From positions 85,018 through 149,017 of the forward strand of contig JAHFIQ010000003.1 in the NCBI GenBank assembly GCA_023246355.1: a stretch of DNA of 64,000 bases, read 5' to 3'. The translations under genes were made by a program, and so were the position numbers. This document shows, piece after piece, positions 55,613 through 64,000 of this stretch. The stretch is from Candidatus Uhrbacteria bacterium (GTDB lineage Bacteria > Patescibacteriota > Patescibacteriia > UBA9934 > GWF2-40-263). How positions within the stretch are numbered: position 1 is the first letter of the stretch; each line of letters begins with the position of its first letter. The notes beneath the pieces are model-generated. The model saw nothing but the letters and a program-made list of their open reading frames with translations, was not told the origin of the DNA and did not search any database.

Positions 55613-56056
55613 TCAAAGTTCGGTCACATCGTCTTCTGAAACATACCTCCCCAGGTAGACCAGATTCTCCCCTGTTTCCTCGTTGCCGATGATTCTCAAA
55701 ATTTCACCTTCTGCTGTTTGATAATCGCTCACGAGAAACGTGTCGTCGACTTCGGCCACGGATTCACCGTTGGTGTCCATGACCGTGCCAGCTTCCTCAG
55801 AGGTGAATTCGTATTCCTTCTCTTTGAGCGTGACCGTGTCGCCTTCTGGCTCGATTTCGTCGTCGATCTCTTTGAAGAAAATAAGCTCTTCGTCTTTGAG
55901 GGACACAGAGAACAGATTTCCCTCGTCATCATAGAACCAACGCAGCTTTGCGCCGTCGTCGATTTCGATTTGCGCGTGACCAACGTAGGTAAACGGATCC
56001 GTGCCAATTTTGAGTGCGTCACCTAAATGTAGTCTCCAAAGGTCTTTGATCGTCAT
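55613..56056 (-). CDS. hypothetical acidic protein (147 aa)
   Basis: ORF rich in D/E (EIDDEIEPEGDTV) with no recognised catalytic motif. Confidence 0.45.
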   Translation of the reverse strand: MTIKDLWRLHLGDALKIGTDPFTYVGHAQIEIDDGAKLRWFYDDEGNLFSVSLKDEELIFFKEIDDEIEPEGDTVTLKEKEYEFTSEEAGTVMDTNGESVAEVDDTFLVSDYQTAEGEILRIIGNEETGENLVYLGRYVSEDDVTEL

Positions 56057-56133
56057 AATGGTTCCTCCTTAAAAATACAGGAGGATTAAAACACGCCAAC
56101 GCTTTTGTGTCTACTCCTCTAGTTTTCCCCACC

Positions 56134-56158
56134 CAAGTTGGGAGCCTGGCTCCCAACT
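56134..56158 (+). promoter_or_regulatory. 25-bp perfect palindrome AAGTTGGGAGCC-T-GGCTCCCAACTT followed by a T-run
   Basis: At the low-GC/high-GC boundary. Could be a terminator-like hairpin or a dimeric protein-binding site. Confidence 0.4.
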
Positions 56159-56182
56159 TTTGGCTTATTTTAGCTACGTACC

Positions 56183-56211
56183 CTTGACAAAACCGTCAAA
56201 ATATGATATCT
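56183..56211 (+). promoter_or_regulatory. sigma70-like promoter (TTGACA-17-TATCTT) for the high-GC gene at 56306
   Basis: cccTTGACAaaaccgtcaaaatatgaTATCTTac; TTGAC...GTCAA also forms a small palindrome. Confidence 0.45.
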
Positions 56212-56305
56212 TACTCGCCTCAGAATGTGGCGGGTTATCTGAGTGACGGACAGAAGTCACTGAGACCACCCGCTGCTTCTGCAGCACTTTTCCCAGGAGT
56301 ACATC

Positions 56306-56986
56306 TTGTCTGTTCCCCAACTCAAGCCGCCGTTCGCGCGCGTCTTCCTGATGATCCGCATCAACCCGCGGAAGGTCAGCCGCTTCGAGCAAGCCGGCAT
56401 CCGTATCGTCCGGCGCACGGCCGAGCGTGACGAGGCCATCCGTGCGAGGCATGCCGAGCAGGTCGGCGAGGAGAAGTACGAACGGTTCGGACTCCGGCAG
56501 GACGCGGAGGGCAACCTTCGCGGCCACTCGGGAGAACCCGTGTTCGGCTTCAACCGCAAGGGCATCCCCCACGAAGCGATCAAGCTGTTCCACCTCCACG
56601 ACGACCTCCAGACGGCCGGCTACAGGCTGATCCGGATGGAGATCGTGATCAAGCCGCGCACGGAGGAGAACAAGCTCGAGAAGAAGCCCGACATGGGCGT
56701 GCTGGTCCTGGCCTACGAGCAGGAAGGCACGGAGGTCGCCCTCACGCAGCTTCAGCTCCAGATGCTCGGCAACGAGCTCTCACGCTACTTCCAACACGTC
56801 CACGTCTGGGACAACAGGGACGCCGACGGCTCTGCCGCGGTGAACCCGTCCCACGTGGTCGAGGAGAAGGACGAGGGGAAGCTCACCGACCCGCGCCTGC
56901 TGCGCCTCCAGATCCTCGACAGCGGGGAGCCGGAGTGGATCAACGAGCCCGAGGCGGCCCCTGCCGCGATGGCCGCCAACGGCTAG
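56306..56986 (+). CDS. hypothetical protein (226 aa), high-GC (~65%) island gene
   Basis: ORF with strongly GC3-biased codons (CTG, GGC, GAG, AAG, GAC), unlike the core genes. No family assigned. An alternative start exists at MIRINPRKV. Confidence 0.5.
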   Translation: MSVPQLKPPFARVFLMIRINPRKVSRFEQAGIRIVRRTAERDEAIRARHAEQVGEEKYERFGLRQDAEGNLRGHSGEPVFGFNRKGIPHEAIKLFHLHDDLQTAGYRLIRMEIVIKPRTEENKLEKKPDMGVLVLAYEQEGTEVALTQLQLQMLGNELSRYFQHVHVWDNRDADGSAAVNPSHVVEEKDEGKLTDPRLLRLQILDSGEPEWINEPEAAPAAMAANG

Positions 56987-57005
56987 CAACGCACTGCCCC
57001 GTGCG

Positions 57006-57070
57006 AAGAAGAGTCCCCGCGTGATTTCGATCACCGGAAACGAGACTCGACTTCGCGCGGGGCTCTTCTT
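57006..57070. other. 15-bp perfect inverted repeat (AAGAAGAGTCCCCGCG ... CGCGGGGCTCTTCTT) between convergent island genes
   Basis: Stem with a 34-nt loop. Possible bidirectional terminator. Confidence 0.4.
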
Positions 57071-57081
57071 ATCCAAAAAAT

Positions 57082-57627
57082 CTACCGTCGATACAAAAAG
57101 ACATTCGGCTGACCTTGTGCCATATCGATGACGTCATCTTCCCAACCATCGATCGGCCAAACATAACTCACGACTCTGGCTCCTGGTTTCAATTCCGCTT
57201 CCAGCTTTGGACGGATTTTTTTGTAGGCCGCGGGCATGAGAAATAGATAAACCACGTCGTAATCTGAGAGGGGGTGCTTGAATACATTTCCAAGGACGAT
57301 TTCAGGAAAAGTGACGATCGCAAAATTTTGAAACTTTTTTTGCGATCGCAAAAAGGCCACCTGCATTTTTGCGATCGTCCACTGGAGCAGGGACAACTCC
57401 ACTCCCACGATCCTTCCTGCCTGAGTCGTTTGTGCTAGATGCCGACAGACGCGTCCATTCCCACAGCCAAGCTCCACAAACATTTCCCCTGGTTGCAGAG
57501 CTACCAACCGCTCGATTCGTTTCAAATCCTTCTTCCACGTCGGCACCCACGGCGCGCCTTGGGTACTGGCATAAGCAACAGAGGCAAGAAGAATCAACCC
57601 GAGACTCAACAAAATATTTGGAACCAT
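57082..57627 (-). CDS. class I SAM-dependent methyltransferase with N-terminal signal/TM segment
   Basis: Motif I VELGCGNGRV. Start set at MVPNILLSLGLILLASVAYA. High GC. Confidence 0.65.
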   Translation of the reverse strand: MVPNILLSLGLILLASVAYASTQGAPWVPTWKKDLKRIERLVALQPGEMFVELGCGNGRVCRHLAQTTQAGRIVGVELSLLQWTIAKMQVAFLRSQKKFQNFAIVTFPEIVLGNVFKHPLSDYDVVYLFLMPAAYKKIRPKLEAELKPGARVVSYVWPIDGWEDDVIDMAQGQPNVFLYRR

Positions 57628-57659
57628 ACGACAACAAGTATAACAAAAAACCGCCGCGA

Positions 57660-58610
57660 CTACTCGCGACGGATGACGTTGACGTCGAACCCGAAGATGT
57701 CTCGTTCTCCTCGTGTGGCAGCGATGCCATCCTCGTCTGCAACCGCCGTCACGCAGTGCCACAAAGGGCTGCCCTTGTCTGCGTGGAAAATGCCCAGACC
57801 TGGGGTAAGTGTGAGATCCAGCAAGTGCGTCTGCTTGTCGGCTCCGGTGATGTAGCTCACTCCACCGACCACTCCTTCTCGCACCACAACGAGTGCTGAG
57901 ACGATGTAGTCGGCGCCGTCTTGATGCAATCCCTCAGGCGCATTGCTGCGCGCTTCACCAGGTCGAGCCAGAAGCCCCATCTGATGAAACGTGATCTCGA
58001 GGTCTTGAATGACGCGGCCTTGATCCCCCTCGGCATCCTCGGTCATCTCAGCAACAGCGATGACGAGACGATGAAACTCGACATGCTCCACCAGCTCGGC
58101 AGCCGTGGGATCGAAGATGCGTTCGATCGTGCGAGGATCGCTTCCACCCACCTCTTGGGTAAACCCGTGACACTCGGTTCTGACCACATGCCACTGCGCA
58201 TCCCAGTTTCCCGTCGCCCGGTTGGTGAGATGAAATCTCGCGATCGACCGTCGTCGATAGGAACGAATCCGCTCGAAGCGAATCTGATCCTGCGTTGGCA
58301 GTCGACGGAAGTACGGAATGAGGTCAATGACGTTTCCCTCCTGTGCAAAGTAGCTGGGGAGGAAACGGTCAAACCACGGCGCGTCAGCAGGAAAACGTTC
58401 CCGAAGAAACGCGACCTGCTCACGTTTCACATCATAGAGATCCCACGAAAGCCTTTGAAAGCTTGGCGCGAGATCTCGGAGAAACCGCTCAGGGTGAACC
58501 CCGATGCCTTCCAGGTTGAACACGCGAATGGGATGTGTGATCACCACGCCGCGTGCTCTTGCAATCTCTTCCTCTGTCAGCACGTACCTGATCCCAGATT
58601 GGCGTTCCAT
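57660..58610 (-). CDS. 2OG-Fe(II) oxygenase-like/cupin-type protein (putative)
   Basis: HQDGADYIVSALVV (HxD) plus downstream WHCV His, suggesting a 2-His-1-carboxylate facial triad. Start set at MERQSGIRYV. Family assignment tentative. Confidence 0.4.
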   Translation of the reverse strand: MERQSGIRYVLTEEEIARARGVVITHPIRVFNLEGIGVHPERFLRDLAPSFQRLSWDLYDVKREQVAFLRERFPADAPWFDRFLPSYFAQEGNVIDLIPYFRRLPTQDQIRFERIRSYRRRSIARFHLTNRATGNWDAQWHVVRTECHGFTQEVGGSDPRTIERIFDPTAAELVEHVEFHRLVIAVAEMTEDAEGDQGRVIQDLEITFHQMGLLARPGEARSNAPEGLHQDGADYIVSALVVVREGVVGGVSYITGADKQTHLLDLTLTPGLGIFHADKGSPLWHCVTAVADEDGIAATRGERDIFGFDVNVIRRE

Positions 58611-58618
58611 GATTCCTC

Positions 58619-60568
58619 CTACCTCGGCGCGCGGCCATCGAGTTCCATCTGGCGGATCTCGGCCATCCATTTCACCTTGAGGGCTTTGGCCTCTGCCTTG
58701 GTCATCTCAGTACCTCCTGGCAGCAAGGCCTTCACCGTACAGTTCACCAGCGCCTGAAGCGTCTGGTAGCGACGAGTGTCCTCGATGTCAGAAGGAAGTC
58801 GGTCTTCTATGAGTCCGATCACCTCTTCCACCGTGAGCCCGTCTTCGTCGGCGGCGGCAGTGAGATCCGCACGCAGCGAACCGAAGTCGGCTGCTGAGTA
58901 TCCTTCCGTGGCCGCACACAGCGCTTTCCACGGCTCCCCATGCATGGCGATCTCCGGGAGAACCGGCTTGATCGCCCACAGGATGAATGCATCCCGATCT
59001 GCGCCTACCGCATCCAGCACAGGAATGATGAGATCACCGGCGCGTCCAGGTCGCCGCATGTCTGGCGACAAGTCCTGGATCCGTGCCGTCATGAGGCACC
59101 ACACGACTTTTCCACGCAGCTTGGGATCGCTCATCCACTTCTGGAATTCACCGGTGAGCCGACGTTCGGTCTCGTGGGTATCAGCACCAACGCCACCAAA
59201 CACCGTGTCAGCTTCGTCCACAAACGGCATGGCACGATCGAGACTCGTGAGAACCCGGTACAAACGCTCCAGCATGATGTCGGTTTCCCCGAACCACTTG
59301 CTGCGAAGGTTGCCCAGCTCCAGCACGACCATTCCCAGTTCAGCCGCGAACGCCTCGAAGATGAAGCTCTTGCCACCGCCGATGGGACCTGAGACCCCGA
59401 AACCTGAGATCGCCTTTTTTCCTCCCGCCTTGATGCGCGGGAGAATTTTCGTGGTCAAAAACACGACCAAATCCGTTGCCCCAACCACATCCTTCAGTCG
59501 ATGCGCCGGCTTCTTGAACTTCACGACGCCTTCGCCCAACTGCGAGATGATGTAGGCCTCCACACGAGAGAGCACATGAGAAGGATCGAGGATCTGACCG
59601 TCGTAGACGTTGCCCATCAACATCTGCCGCAGAGCATGGATCGTGAGACCCGCAGAGAGCTCCGAGAGTTCTGCCTGTGTCCCCCAAAGCTTGATCTTGT
59701 TTCCTTCCTCCTGGTTACGGTTGAACCAGGTGATGAAGTGGCTTCGCGCTTCGGTGTTGGGACTGGGAATCGCCACACGCAAGACTTGCGGCAGCTTGAC
59801 CACGCGATGATTCACGCTTGCAGCTGACTCGGCGATCAAGACCACGGAGTCCTGTGCATGGAGAAACTCCGGATCCGAGAACCAGCTTTGGCAGATCATC
59901 ACTCGATGACGATCCGCCTCGTTGAGACTCGTGATCTGTCCTTCAGGAATGATCGTGTCCGCGCGCTCGATCAGAATCACCAGTCGCCTGCCATACAAGG
60001 CATCGCCCTGCACGGCCGCACGAGAAACCTTGCACATCTCGGCAAGCAGGGTGAGAGCCACCGCAGGTTTGCCCATTACGCGGGTGAGGTACTCGTCGAA
60101 TTCTGGTCCGGACGCCGCGAGCTTCTTGGCCTCTTCGCCGTGAGAGAGCATGCGCCGAATCGCCAGATCATCCGCGGATAGCCCGGTCTGCTGCTTCACC
60201 CAATCAGTCCTCATGGCCTCACGGTCGCTTTCGCGAGCAAATCGGATGGGACCATTGAGACTATAGGTCAGAAGCACCACACTCTCGGGCTTCCCCCAAT
60301 GCGCCCTGAGATTGTCGGCGATTGGGACGTAGCGCCCGAACTCGCTGTCTTGAGACAGGGTGGGTGGAAGCCAGAACAGGTCCTCGACATTGCCGGTGAG
60401 CACAATCGTGCGGGCAGAACCCGCATTCAAGATGTCCGCCGCCTCGCGACGCCAGGGGTATTCCAGATGGGGAATGGACATGAATCCTCCAGAGAACTTG
60501 TCTTCGGACGACGAATCATTCGTCGTCCAGAGAAAAGGGTCGATGTGAAATCGACCGGTGAGCGACAC
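58619..60568 (-). CDS. classic-clade AAA ATPase with a ~370-aa N-terminal domain of unknown function
   Basis: C-terminal module GVSGPIGGGKSFIFEAFAAELG...LRSKWFGETD...PFVDEADTVFGG...TARIQDLSPDMRRPGRAGD follows the CDC48/FtsH-type AAA consensus (Walker A/B, SRH-like, Arg finger). Confidence 0.8.
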   Translation of the reverse strand: MSLTGRFHIDPFLWTTNDSSSEDKFSGGFMSIPHLEYPWRREAADILNAGSARTIVLTGNVEDLFWLPPTLSQDSEFGRYVPIADNLRAHWGKPESVVLLTYSLNGPIRFARESDREAMRTDWVKQQTGLSADDLAIRRMLSHGEEAKKLAASGPEFDEYLTRVMGKPAVALTLLAEMCKVSRAAVQGDALYGRRLVILIERADTIIPEGQITSLNEADRHRVMICQSWFSDPEFLHAQDSVVLIAESAASVNHRVVKLPQVLRVAIPSPNTEARSHFITWFNRNQEEGNKIKLWGTQAELSELSAGLTIHALRQMLMGNVYDGQILDPSHVLSRVEAYIISQLGEGVVKFKKPAHRLKDVVGATDLVVFLTTKILPRIKAGGKKAISGFGVSGPIGGGKSFIFEAFAAELGMVVLELGNLRSKWFGETDIMLERLYRVLTSLDRAMPFVDEADTVFGGVGADTHETERRLTGEFQKWMSDPKLRGKVVWCLMTARIQDLSPDMRRPGRAGDLIIPVLDAVGADRDAFILWAIKPVLPEIAMHGEPWKALCAATEGYSAADFGSLRADLTAAADEDGLTVEEVIGLIEDRLPSDIEDTRRYQTLQALVNCTVKALLPGGTEMTKAEAKALKVKWMAEIRQMELDGRAPR

Positions 60569-60579
60569 GGGATCCGTGT

Positions 60580-61527
60580 CTATGAGCGAGGGGCGAGAAC
60601 CCCCTCGGCTTGGCCTTGTGCAACCGTTTCCCAGAACGTGCGGTGTTCATGGGGATCGAGATCCCGCCCATCGAAGACGATCTCGTAGAGCTCCTCAGCT
60701 TGGTGCGTGATGCGACCGTTCCTGATCGGATCAGACGCGTGGAAGACGGGCGCGGCCTTGTCGTAGACCACACGCGCTCCTCGACCATCTCGTCCCTTCC
60801 AATGCTTGGAAAGGCCGATCACACGATCGCCGACATGCACAGCTTCTTCCAATTGATGGGTGACCATGATGACCGTGTGCGGAGGTTCCCCTCCTTCCTG
60901 AACAGCCTTCATGTTTTCGTCATAGAGATCCAGCAAGACCCGACGTGCGTCGTGGCGCGTTTCCTCGTCGAGGGCTCCGAAGGGCTCATCCAGAAGCAGA
61001 ATCTCCGGCTGCATGATGAGTGCCCTGGCAATCGCGACACGTTGCCGCTGACCACCAGAGAGCTGATGGGGAAACTTGTGCGTATGGCCTGCAAGACCAA
61101 GGCGCGCAAGCATCGCTTCACTTGCTTCCAGTTGTGCTTTGCGTGCCCGACGCCAGGAGCCGGTGATCGATCCCACCAGCCTTGCGGGAATGGTTGTGCT
61201 CCCCAGCATGAGGCCCAGAGCCACATTGTGAAGCGCACTCAGATGCGGGTACAGCGAGTACTCCTGGTACACCATGCCGCGGTCCGGTCCATGGCCCTGC
61301 ACCTCGTAGCTCTCTCCGGCTCGCGTGAGTAGGATTCTCCCGGACGTGGGTTCATGCGTCCCAACGATCATGTTGAGCAGCGTGGACTTTCCACAGCCGG
61401 AGGAGCCGACCATGGCCACGATCTGACCGCGAGCGATCTTCACGTTGATGCCGGTGAGCACCTGCGTGGCTCCAAATGCCTTGTGAACATCCACACAATC
61501 CAGGGCGACCTGGTAGCGAGCTTCCAT
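60580..61527 (-). CDS. ABC transporter ATP-binding protein (NitT/TauT-type importer)
   Basis: GSSGCGKST Walker A, LSGGQRQRVAIARAL signature and LLLDEPFGALD Walker B. Start ATG overlaps the permease stop (ATGA). Confidence 0.9.
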   Translation of the reverse strand: MEARYQVALDCVDVHKAFGATQVLTGINVKIARGQIVAMVGSSGCGKSTLLNMIVGTHEPTSGRILLTRAGESYEVQGHGPDRGMVYQEYSLYPHLSALHNVALGLMLGSTTIPARLVGSITGSWRRARKAQLEASEAMLARLGLAGHTHKFPHQLSGGQRQRVAIARALIMQPEILLLDEPFGALDEETRHDARRVLLDLYDENMKAVQEGGEPPHTVIMVTHQLEEAVHVGDRVIGLSKHWKGRDGRGARVVYDKAAPVFHASDPIRNGRITHQAEELYEIVFDGRDLDPHEHRTFWETVAQGQAEGVLAPRS

Positions 61528-62366
61528 CACTGTCCCTCCCGGACATACCAGGGGCAGAGCAGCCGCTGGACTTGGTTGAAAAACACTTGGATCCCGATTC
61601 CCATGAACCCGAGGGCCATGAGATACGGAATCACCACGTCCATGCGAGCCGATCGGTACAGACGCAGGAAGCGATAGCCATAGCCCGCCTGTCCTGCAAC
61701 CCATTCGGTTGCGACCAGCAAGATGAGGGCCAGCCCCACACTTGCTCGAATGGCATCGATGATCTGGGGAAGCACCTGCCAAAACAGGATGCTCCAGACA
61801 ATCTCTTGGTTGCTGGCGCCAAGCGTCTTGGCACTGAAGATGTGTTCGTCGTGCACTTCGCGCACCGCGGCGTAGACCCTGCCGGCAATCACTGGCAAAA
61901 TCCCGAACACGATGACCGCGGCAAACATCTTGAACTCGAACCCGAACAGGGTGATGAACACGACCATGGCGACATTGGGAACGATGTTCTCCTCGAAGTT
62001 GAGAAGGCGTCCCCACATGCTTTCGGCCGCGACATAGGTTCCCATGTAGAGCCCCAGCACCACTCCCAGAACACTGGCGATCCCGATCGCTGGCACGAGC
62101 CGGGCGTAGGAATCGATCGTGTCCTTCAAGAGGACATAGTCACCGCTCTTGGGATCCTTCCACATCTCGCCCACGCCGTGGAACAACTTGCCCCACGTCG
62201 GAATCAGCGTGTTGTCGCCCAGGTAGGCCAGAGCCGTGTAGGCGGTAAGGATGAGGAGAATCGCCAGGGCGAAGTAGCAACGAGAGAGCCAGGCAGGCAG
62301 ACTCTCGCGCATGGTGAAGGTGGCGCGAATGTAGTCACGCCAAGAGCGCGTACGAATCTGGTCCAT
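61527..62366 (-). CDS. ABC transporter permease (NitT/TauT family)
   Basis: 6-TM binding-protein-dependent permease with an EAA-like loop region. Start set at MDQIRTRSW. Confidence 0.8.
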   Translation of the reverse strand: MDQIRTRSWRDYIRATFTMRESLPAWLSRCYFALAILLILTAYTALAYLGDNTLIPTWGKLFHGVGEMWKDPKSGDYVLLKDTIDSYARLVPAIGIASVLGVVLGLYMGTYVAAESMWGRLLNFEENIVPNVAMVVFITLFGFEFKMFAAVIVFGILPVIAGRVYAAVREVHDEHIFSAKTLGASNQEIVWSILFWQVLPQIIDAIRASVGLALILLVATEWVAGQAGYGYRFLRLYRSARMDVVIPYLMALGFMGIGIQVFFNQVQRLLCPWYVREGQ

Positions 62367-62471
62367 GGTGGACTCCGTGGAAAAAACGTCTCTTCGGATG
62401 ACGACCATCGTCATCCAGAGAAAAGGGTCGACGCACCTGGCTTCAAGAGCCAGGGGTCGACCTGAGTGCGG

Positions 62472-63653
62472 CTAGCGCACGAGCGACGTGTCGAAGCGCA
62501 GCAGCGCGGTGGGAGCGGACTCCTTCGTGCCCCAGGCCATGGGGATCGCGTCCACGGAATCCACGAGCTTGTGGACGACCGAGAACTCCTGCACGAGCGG
62601 CATGTTGGCGCGGAACGTCGGCGAGTCCAGCACATCCGCGTCGTTGGGACCCATCATGTGGGTCAGCTCCATGGAGCGGCCGATTGCGCCGTTGTCCAGG
62701 TCGTTGAACTGCGGGCTGATGGCCCGGTAGGTCTGTGCCTGCTGCGAGGGATCCCGACTGCGAGCGGTCATGCTCTGCATGGCCAGCCCCAGGACCCGCA
62801 CACCTTCACGTCCGCCGGCTCGATCGAGCGCCTTCTGGCCCACCACCAACATGTCGGTGATCTCGTAGTCCTGGAGCATCGAGCTGTTGAACAGGTCGCG
62901 CACATCGTCGGCTTTGTCCTCGTTGCCGTTTCGGGTATCCAGGACCGTGAAGGTCTCCGGACTCCATCCACCGAAGGCGCGCAGCGCCGGATCTTGGCGA
63001 CCCGCGAACTGCGTGGAACCCACGACCGGGTCGAGGTTCACGAACGTGTAGTCGGATCCGTAGCGGCCGGCCACGTTGTTCACGGTGCAGGCACGCCAGT
63101 ACAGGTACTGGGTGACCGAGAACTCGGCGCCGTGCACGGGCACGCCCGCGAGGTCTGCCCAGGTTGCGATCTCATCTTCCACGAGGATCTTGTCCGCGCC
63201 GTCCGACCAGGAGGTCGGAAACACGGCCACGGTTGCGTCCCCGCTGCTCTTCTTGCGCTCACCGGCAACCGCGAAGGCGTCGGTGTTGGTGATGAGCAGC
63301 GCGTCCACGGTCCCGGCGCCGTACACGCCGAAGGACTGCACGTAGTCCATGCGCTGGAGCACGACATCCACGCCGTTGTCCCGTTCGAACTGGCCCTGCC
63401 AGCCCTGCCGGTTGTCGATGTAGCCGAAGGCCTCGGCACTCGCCAGAGCCGACCACGAGGTGTAGGGCGACCAGGCGAGCGTGAAGACCGGCGTCCCTGC
63501 GGGCGCTTCGGTCTTCTGCGCGAGAGGATTGGCCGCGCTGCTGGGCTGAACGGTCACCTCCGGAGGGGAACCGATTCCGTCACTGGGACCCGAATTGCGG
63601 TTGTCCTGGCTGGCGCAGGCGATGAGCATGATGAGAGGAACGAGGGGAAGCAT
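62472..63653 (-). CDS. ABC transporter substrate-binding lipoprotein
   Basis: Signal peptide with lipobox LIMLIACASQ. Periplasmic-binding-protein-size mature domain. Start set at MLPLVPLIML. Confidence 0.75.
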   Translation of the reverse strand: MLPLVPLIMLIACASQDNRNSGPSDGIGSPPEVTVQPSSAANPLAQKTEAPAGTPVFTLAWSPYTSWSALASAEAFGYIDNRQGWQGQFERDNGVDVVLQRMDYVQSFGVYGAGTVDALLITNTDAFAVAGERKKSSGDATVAVFPTSWSDGADKILVEDEIATWADLAGVPVHGAEFSVTQYLYWRACTVNNVAGRYGSDYTFVNLDPVVGSTQFAGRQDPALRAFGGWSPETFTVLDTRNGNEDKADDVRDLFNSSMLQDYEITDMLVVGQKALDRAGGREGVRVLGLAMQSMTARSRDPSQQAQTYRAISPQFNDLDNGAIGRSMELTHMMGPNDADVLDSPTFRANMPLVQEFSVVHKLVDSVDAIPMAWGTKESAPTALLRFDTSLVR

Positions 63654-63775
63654 CTGACGTCTCCGTGTTGAACGGCTCGCAAGCGAGCCTTGGGTGATCA
63701 CTCTTTCCGGGTTTCCCCGGTCAGGGTGGTGAAAAGTCACGTCGGTATGATCGACGTGACAGCTTGTGCGAAGCG

Positions 63776-64000
63776 CTAGCTCAGCTTCTCTGCAGCGGCC
63801 GCCGGCGCATCCGGTACCCTGGTCTTGGTCTCGACCTGCTCGGCCAGGCCCAAGAGCGCCGCGAACTCGATGGACGCTTGGGCTTCGTGAGCAGAGGCGA
63901 GGTACTGCGACTCGCTGACAGCCGCATCCGTTCCCGCGAGCTCGGAGGAGACACGCGCTTCGGCTTCGGCCTGACCCACGACCTCGCGAATCGAGGAGAG
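63776..64000 (-). CDS. possible 3' part of a gene continuing beyond the window end
   Basis: High-GC minus-strand ORF (GTG start in the track; may extend upstream past 64000) ending ...LGLAEQVETKTRVPDAPAAAAEKLS. Weak. Confidence 0.2.
   Translation of the reverse strand, partial: LSSIREVVGQAEAEARVSSELAGTDAAVSESQYLASAHEAQASIEFAALLGLAEQVETKTRVPDAPAAAAEKLS

Follow-up and report, generated by a model that had tools for sequence, protein, structure and literature searches.

A probable PspA-linked membrane-maintenance operon with a tandem AAA ATPase, an ABC importer and a PF10014 oxygenase in Candidatus Uhrbacteria

Bacterial PspA occasionally co-occurs with a protein of two AAA+ domains, the N-terminal one inactive, as stated in the text of a comparative study (Ravi et al., mSystems 2024, PMC11237479), which in its Table S3 gives OGG56892.1 of Candidatus Handelsmanbacteria as an example. 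One operon type named there reads PspA / TM-Snf7 / 'inactive-AAA + AAA' / ABC ATPase / permease / PBPB-OmpA. A Vps4-like ATPase 'appears absent in bacteria' according to a passage of a 2025 review (PMC7619361). Here we describe a related locus from Candidatus Uhrbacteria, located near one end of a stretch of 64,000 nucleotides (the window; contig JAHFIQ010000003.1, positions 85,018 to 149,017), to which all coordinates refer unless a contig name precedes them. Six co-directional genes on the minus strand (57082-63653) were confirmed by ORF (open reading frame) listing, inspection of start codons and ribosome-binding sites (RBS), and profile scans. They encode the substrate-binding protein (SBP), permease and ATPase of an ATP-binding cassette (ABC) importer, a tandem AAA ATPase, a 2-oxoglutarate (2OG)/Fe(II) oxygenase and a methyltransferase, all six of the kinds given in a preliminary description of this DNA. 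We consider it probable that the window holds the distal part of an operon of about 12 kb, a membrane-maintenance system of PspA/ESCRT-III type with its own ATPase. The core of this operon is already described by comparative genomics (PMC11237479) and the window contains a variant with an oxygenase.

The pairing of the AAA ATPase with a PspA-family protein is near-obligate. Eighty genome loci with AAA homologues were fetched and their ORFs called and clustered, and partners were counted in the 63 loci whose sequence extends 7 kb or more upstream of AAA. The PspA-family protein (c2) accompanies the AAA gene in 61 of these 63 loci, a coiled-coil membrane protein (c4) in 38, the ABC genes in 26, a PBPb-OmpA protein in 23 and a VWA protein in 20. 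The presence of a VWA gene in the operon in 20/63 loci favours a different reading, in which the AAA protein acts on an envelope complex of the VWA protein and the transporter, as chaperone or extractor, much like a MoxR-VWA pair, with PspA as a co-regulated stress protein only. Pairing of AAA and VWA proteins is common in bacteria. We regard this as quite unlikely, since VWA is found in about a third of the loci as against nearly all for PspA, and the AAA protein is not a MoxR but of the classical clade, and its pore loop is of the substrate-threading kind.

The c2 gene and the remainder of the operon were seen in the source contig. The exact AAA protein is present on the 168-kb metagenome contig L001 and on several other contigs, and upstream of the window end the cluster on L001 runs on for five further co-directional genes, giving the operon order NMT1-like, VWA, PBPb-OmpA, c4, c2 (PspA), SBP, permease, ATPase, AAA, 2OG. 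The first gene encodes an NMT1/SsuA-like binding protein of 616 amino acids and the second the VWA protein. They are followed by a 515 amino acid PBPb-OmpA protein (L001:3469-5016) with matches to OmpA (PF00691) and to TIGR03427/SsuA-like profiles, and by c4, a coiled-coil membrane protein of 252 amino acids with two transmembrane segments; these four genes lie entirely beyond the window. The fifth, c2 (276 amino acids, L001:5876-6706), is directly upstream of the SBP gene, and its 3' end, comprising the last 74 codons, is found on the minus strand at 63776-64000, where it is cut off by the window end. The translation of 63776-64000 is identical to the C-terminus of c2 at L001:5876-6706. The key partner of the AAA protein is thus situated at and beyond the window edge, hence outside the view of the preliminary description. 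Continuity of the operon was seen in the source contig and in relatives with 78%, 62% and 46% AAA identity, and the downstream genes for a DUF4178 protein, a TSP3-repeat protein, PBP2 and a Mur ligase are syntenic in relatives. The nearest named relative is from Candidatus Uhrbacteria.

The c2 protein belongs to the PspA/Vipp1 family of the ESCRT-III superfamily. PF04012 matches 14 of the 23 c2 family members (best E 1.5e-8), the c2 family profile has Vipp1/PspA as its top match in PDB (E 0.005), and some members carry the JGI name 'phage shock protein A'. The AlphaFold2 model has the layout alpha0, a long alpha1/alpha2-3 hairpin, alpha4 and alpha5, and its ten best Foldseek matches are nine Vipp1 structures and one Smc5/6 arm (best E 2e-4, about 20% identity, full-length). 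Single-sequence scans with Pfam and NCBIfam gave no significant family for this genome's own c2 and c4, and the PspA assignment therefore rests on the family-wide scan and the structure model. A comparison by hhalign of the c2 profile with an E. coli PspA sequence gave no signal and is uninformative, the target being a single sequence with a low effective number of sequences (Neff). The c2 protein ends in a conserved C-terminal tail, EFDxLxGL...LPE. The c4 protein has N-terminal hydrophobic helices and a coiled coil.

The AAA gene (58619-60481, minus strand) encodes a protein of 620 amino acids, with a degenerate D1 at approximately residues 1-340 followed by an active classical D2. The start is the ATG at 60481, which a GGAGG site precedes; the same start was chosen by the gene caller on the source contig, and all homologues align from about residue 1-8, in line with the 620 amino acid protein. 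The length of 649 amino acids given earlier, from a GTG at 60568, is without support and was abandoned, as gene caller, RBS and homologues all favour the ATG. The motifs GPIGGGKS, FVDEAD and RRPGRAGD were found as quoted. The protein had also been called an orphan, which it is not: it is a member of a large family of proteins of about 605 amino acids that are about 50% identical across phyla. The protein search gave at least 120 full-length homologues of about this length, 45-78% identical, from Verrucomicrobiota, Planctomycetota, Sumerlaeota, Myxococcota, Acidobacteriota and bacteria of the Candidate Phyla Radiation (CPR). Residues 1-340 alone match 397 cluster representatives (clusters at 50% identity), 76 of them at E <= 1e-30; most of the full-length ones carry the domain N-terminally in proteins of about 520-650 amino acids, and the others are shorter and fragment-like.

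The N-terminal domain, earlier considered novel and without a family, is an AAA D1 in degenerate form, followed by an intact D2. By sequence profiles only the second module is recognised: PF00004 matches D2 only and the PDB profile search gave matches restricted to the C-terminal module (VAT, Cdc48 and p97; E about 1e-29). The AlphaFold2 model (pLDDT 85.7) aligns in Foldseek over its full length (about 630-650 columns) to the D1-D2 ATPases Rix7, NVL, Cdc48 and p97, and comparison with N-terminally deleted Rix7 gave a TM-score of 0.45-0.52. In the alignment, the Walker A position of D1 reads LTGNxxDLF, without a lysine, in 19 of 19 members, and GPIGGGK[ST], DEAD, the pore loop SKWFGE and RRPGR are invariant in D2. 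It is this combination of a tandem D1-D2 structural match with a lost D1 Walker A that identifies the domain, and what was annotated as an orphan N-domain can now be labelled a degenerate AAA D1.

The three genes upstream of the AAA gene encode an importer of NitT/TauT type, with a BPD_transp_1 permease of the TauC/SsuC/NrtB type and an NMT1/SsuA-like binding protein. The SBP is a lipoprotein of 393 amino acids (62472-63653, minus strand; lipobox LIAC), closest to TIGR03427 with a weak match under the curated cut-off (E 3e-24). The permease (61527-62366, minus strand; PF00528, BPD_transp_1, 45 bits) has 279 amino acids from a start backed by the gene caller and by homologues, with an alternative start at 62414, and is closest to SaoP, TauC and NtrB with profile scores below the equivalog cut-offs. 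The ABC ATPase (60580-61527, minus strand; PF00005, E 4e-33) has 315 amino acids. All importer scores are below equivalog cut-offs and so assign no substrate, and an Rfam scan of L001:1-14500 gave no riboswitch naming it, the two upstream tRNAs being the only matches. The linkage of importer and AAA protein, proposed in the preliminary description, is real and evolutionarily conserved. About 35 of the 80 genomes (about 40%), from many phyla, have the SBP-permease-ATPase set immediately in front of the AAA gene, and where ABC genes occur the order is almost always SBP-permease-ATPase-AAA. In 35 genomes the ATPase whose gene immediately precedes that of the AAA protein shares 45-52% identity with the ABC ATPase of the window, and SBP homologues hold the same position in more than 30 loci.

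The spacing between the six genes agrees only in part with the gaps of 8-32 bp or overlapping codons given earlier. The AAA and 2OG genes are 8 bp apart, the 2OG and methyltransferase genes 32 bp, and the permease stop overlaps the ATG of the ABC ATPase by 1 nt. The SBP and permease genes, however, are separated by 105 bp (57 bp with the alternative permease start), and the gap between the ABC ATPase and AAA genes is 98 bp and contains conserved hairpins (11 bp under the 649 amino acid model). A scan for sigma-70 promoters and terminators gave total counts not above those of shuffled controls; two individual hairpins, at 57672-57651 and 60556-60538, were followed up on the strength of their conservation in relatives. 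The spacer between the ABC ATPase and AAA genes (60482-60579, minus strand) contains three hairpins, one of which is GGTCGAT..ATCGACC followed by CTTTTCTCT. Three CPR relatives (L083, L085 and L087) retain this hairpin with both arms of its stem altered, whereas only about 20-30 bp separate the two genes in non-CPR loci. The spacer hairpin is a possible attenuator that may set the ratio of transporter to AAA expression.

The gene downstream of the AAA gene (57660-58610, minus strand) encodes a 2OG/Fe(II) oxygenase of 316 amino acids, in agreement with the 2OG-Fe oxygenase-like protein named earlier. It matches PF10014 with 81.7 bits (E 7e-23; gathering cut-off 23.1), and H229, D231, H285 and R303, corresponding to the HxD...H iron triad and a conserved arginine, are invariant in 26 sequences. 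Its relatives in PDB are BsmA-domain proteins and TqaL. Characterised PF10014 members oxidise free amino acids (PMC3684760). The 2OG gene is absent from all 80 AAA-anchored loci, and also from the two closest relatives (AAA 78% and 62% identical), in which the methyltransferase gene directly follows the AAA gene. The 80 loci suggested that the gene is unique to this genome, and this was overturned by a search from the 2OG side, in which the gene was tied to genes of the system in at least ten other loci with three gene orders. L087 (AAA 46%, 2OG 47% identical) has the same AAA-2OG-methyltransferase order; in L090 the SBP-permease-ATPase-AAA genes are followed by a 206 amino acid ORF and then the 2OG gene; L088 has the order NMT1-VWA-PBPbOmpA-c4-SBP-permease-ATPase-2OG; in L099, L100, L101, L112 and L122 the 2OG gene lies between the VWA and PBPb-OmpA genes; and in L105 it is divergent from the VWA/PBPb-OmpA genes. 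Distant PF10014 homologues (<=35% identity) are mostly unlinked to the system. From these arrangements the oxygenase is a recurrent accessory of the system, bound more to the transporter/envelope half than to the AAA protein. The trio of AAA, oxygenase and methyltransferase pointed out in the preliminary description recurs in the same order in L087, its only other lineage, and is broken in the two closest relatives by the missing oxygenase. The association of the 2OG gene with the PspA/AAA/ABC system is newly noticed; searches of the supplementary text of Ravi et al. (PMC11237479) for 'vWA', '2OG' and 'dioxygenase' gave nothing.

The oxygenase and the importer together could also be taken as a metabolic pathway, as first suggested, in which a substrate brought in by the importer is first oxidised by the 2OG enzyme and then methylated by the methyltransferase, with the AAA protein as an accessory. 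The 2OG gene does accompany the genes of the transporter, PBPb-OmpA and VWA also in loci that lack AAA and PspA (L088; L099-L101), and free amino acids are the substrates of the characterised PF10014 enzymes. Such a pathway is unlikely all the same, given that the oxygenase is missing from the two closest relatives and from each of the 80 AAA-anchored loci, that PspA, and no enzyme, is the constant companion of the AAA protein, and that the methyltransferase gene comes after a terminator, has the opposite orientation in L006 and encodes a protein nearer to protein-lysine than to small-molecule methyltransferases.

The methyltransferase gene (57082-57627, minus strand) encodes a class-I enzyme of 181 amino acids with an N-terminal hydrophobic anchor and matches to Pfam methyltransferase families. 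It matches PDB 5fa8/5jwj (the protein-lysine N-methyltransferase aKMT) over the whole catalytic domain (E 2e-18), and NF041081 with 58.6 bits against a cut-off of 200. Homologues of 167-175 amino acids in L083, L085 and L087 back the start at ATG 57627. The gene caller on the source contig gave only the last 108 codons (GTG 57408), dropping the motif that binds S-adenosylmethionine. No Shine-Dalgarno sequence accompanies ATG 57627, and a TATACT motif stands about 13 nt in front of it, so that the transcript may begin with a very short leader or none at all. The 32 bp in front of the gene are taken up by a terminator-like hairpin (57651-57672, minus strand; 9 bp, 7 of them GC) and T6, which extend across the 2OG stop codon. 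The oxygenase-less loci L083 and L085 have an equivalent hairpin with TTTTTGTTATA[CA]T 3' of the AAA gene, and the hairpin at the 2OG end in the window carries the same TTTTTGTTATA[CA]T motif. The methyltransferase homologue in L006 is on the opposite strand. Because the terminator-like hairpin precedes the gene and the gene is inverted in L006, the methyltransferase is probably a conserved neighbour, a separate transcription unit with its own promoter and not a member of the operon, with read-through possible. Of the six-gene operon in the preliminary description, the part from SBP to 2OG stands, the methyltransferase probably falls outside it, and the operon extends past the window.

The variable orientation of the methyltransferase gene, its terminator, and a degree of conservation not above that of the syntenic block as a whole make a chance neighbourhood plausible for this gene only. 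As an account of the whole locus, chance juxtaposition of unrelated genes is hardly credible: it is rejected for SBP-permease-ATPase-AAA, the order found in about 35 of 80 loci and in many phyla, and for the 2OG gene, which occurs in at least ten loci and three orders. For the core genes chance is refuted by the gene neighbourhoods.

Downstream of the methyltransferase a 226 amino acid ORF (56306-56986, plus strand) is convergent with it. The ORF has no family match in Pfam, NCBIfam, PADLOC or PHROGs, and its position is conserved, with ORFs of 211-270 amino acids on the opposite strand in L083, L085 and L087; the gene callers disagree on it between the otherwise identical contigs L001 and L002. 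Between the two convergent genes, at 56986-57082, there is a long imperfect palindrome, AAGAAGAGCCCCGCG ... CGCGGGGACTCTTCTT, probably a bidirectional terminator; L083 and L085 have a similar one.

The GC content of the operon exceeds that of the remaining genome by about 10 points, 0.57-0.62 against about 0.51 (window 56000-64000 compared with 1-56000; L001:1-14000), and the same offset is found in relatives of very different composition (0.505 against 0.403 in L085, and 0.613 against 0.487 in L087). This could reflect an old lateral acquisition or a compositional constraint. Two tRNA genes, a typical landmark of island insertion, are located at L001:98-259 just upstream of the first operon gene. 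The raised GC content and the adjoining tRNA genes would fit an anti-phage defence island of a MADS-like or Detocs/IetA-like kind, as would weak PADLOC matches of mad2 to the methyltransferase (3e-16), mad3 to the ABC ATPase (4e-30) and IetA to the AAA protein (1e-4). PADLOC-DB 2023, however, gave no full system but partial matches of mad2, mad3, mad8 and IetA, and these span the generic methyltransferase, ABC and AAA domains only. The cluster contains no nuclease or other effector, the chromosomal synteny is stable among the CPR relatives and PHROGs gave nothing relevant. A defence island is accordingly very improbable, and of the stress or defence system suggested in the preliminary description, the stress type comes close and the defence type does not hold.

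The make-up of the system around the PspA-AAA pair varies among the loci. In Poribacteria and some Hydrogenedentota only c2, often as tandem paralogues, is found beside the AAA gene. Thirteen Poribacteria loci (L034-L037, L043-L045, L049, L050, L053, L057, L058 and L073) have two to five tandem PspA-family paralogues and no ABC transporter, together with a protein of about 600 amino acids (c22, no Pfam match) between PspA and AAA; this arrangement is reminiscent of archaea and eukaryotes with their several ESCRT-III paralogues. At the other side of the AAA gene, L006, L011, L014, L024, L033 and L062 have a RaSEA-like radical-SAM protein (about 340 amino acids; TIGR01210, E 2e-31; CX4CX2C) directly after it. 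The post-AAA site looks like a variable position for an accessory enzyme, occupied by the PF10014 oxygenase here and by the RaSEA-like protein elsewhere.

Taken as a membrane-maintenance system, the operon might work as follows. The PspA-family protein c2 would polymerise on stressed or curved membrane, and the membrane-anchored coiled-coil protein c4 would possibly anchor or nucleate the polymer. By analogy with Vps4 and ESCRT-III, the AAA protein would form a hexamer and use the D2 pore loop KWFGE to pull PspA subunits from the polymer and recycle them, with the dead D1 acting as a scaffold or as a substrate-recognition ring. The NitT/TauT-type importer and the wall-anchored binding proteins would import a small polar solute in the same envelope response, and the PF10014 oxygenase, from a family with characterised members that oxidise free amino acids, would most likely carry out a cytoplasmic modification of the imported solute or of a metabolite related to it. 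The more far-reaching proposal is that the system is a bacterial functional counterpart of ESCRT-III/Vps4, in which a PspA polymer is remodelled by a dedicated tandem AAA ATPase and physically coupled to a wall-anchored ABC complex, with an accessory slot for a PF10014 or RaSEA-like enzyme, in many uncultured phyla including CPR. We put this forward tentatively, as a possibility open to considerable doubt.

Several observations weigh against the reading as a membrane-maintenance system with this mechanism. PspA and AAA occur without the transporter in 36 of the 63 loci, and the core can therefore do without it; the L088 variant (L088:1860-10936) keeps the transporter, c4 and 2OG without PspA and AAA, which means that the transporter/envelope half can exist alone. 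Profile scans gave no match to an MIT domain in the AAA protein, and c4 has no Snf7 or PspA signal by Pfam, by PDB profile search or by hhalign against c2 (probability 1.7%). Literature searches found no experimental study of any system member, and to our knowledge no experiment on any of them has been done.

The system bears on how bacterial polymers of the ESCRT-III superfamily (PspA, Vipp1) are disassembled and recycled, and it offers a concrete candidate pair. The ATPase family comprises hundreds of 50%-identity clusters and is almost always found beside PspA in the 80 genomes. The recurrent peptidoglycan-anchored importer, sometimes together with the oxygenase, suggests that the repair of membranes and the uptake of solutes may be connected. 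If true, the proposed counterpart of ESCRT-III/Vps4 would contradict the statement in PMC7619361 on the missing bacterial Vps4-like ATPase.

Compared with the Psp and Lia systems (PspF-ABC of E. coli and LiaIH of B. subtilis), the locus shares a PspA-family effector and a membrane-anchored partner, in agreement with a role in envelope stress. It differs in that no PspF (an AAA+ protein of the bEBP type), PspB/C or LiaI was detected here, and in that its ATPase is of the classical AAA unfoldase type and not a transcription activator. Cdc48, p97, VAT and Rix7 include the best sequence matches of the AAA protein (in PDB, for D2) and its full D1-D2 structure matches, but the protein lacks the N-terminal double-psi-barrel that precedes D1 in Cdc48/p97, its D1 is without the Walker A lysine, and it scores 46 with TIGR01243 (CDC48) against a cut-off of 802.65. 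With ESCRT-III/Vps4 (CdvB/CdvC) it has in common that the gene of an ESCRT-III-superfamily polymer adjoins that of a classical AAA protein with a Vps4/p97-like pore loop, SKWFGE. The AAA protein here, however, has two AAA domains instead of one and no MIT domain, the polymer subunit is of the PspA/Vipp1 and not the Snf7 type, and the score with NCBIfam CdvC is 20.9 against a cut-off of 650; ESCRT-III/Vps4 is a functional analogue at most.

The oxygenase resembles the BsmA, IDO, HilB and TqaL enzymes of PF10014 in its above-threshold hidden Markov model score, its HxD...H triad and its conserved arginine. It is distinguished from them by an extra N-terminal region of about 110 amino acids, conserved in a sub-clade, and by its context, a PspA/transporter operon and not an amino-acid or secondary-metabolite cluster. 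The closest likeness of the operon as a whole is to the operons of Ravi et al., which combine PspA with a tandem AAA protein inactive in its first domain, an ABC ATPase and permease, PBPb-OmpA and a membrane-anchored helical protein. The gene order differs from those operons, this locus and many others add the VWA protein, the 616 amino acid NMT1-like protein and a separate SBP lipoprotein, and this CPR lineage adds the PF10014 oxygenase.

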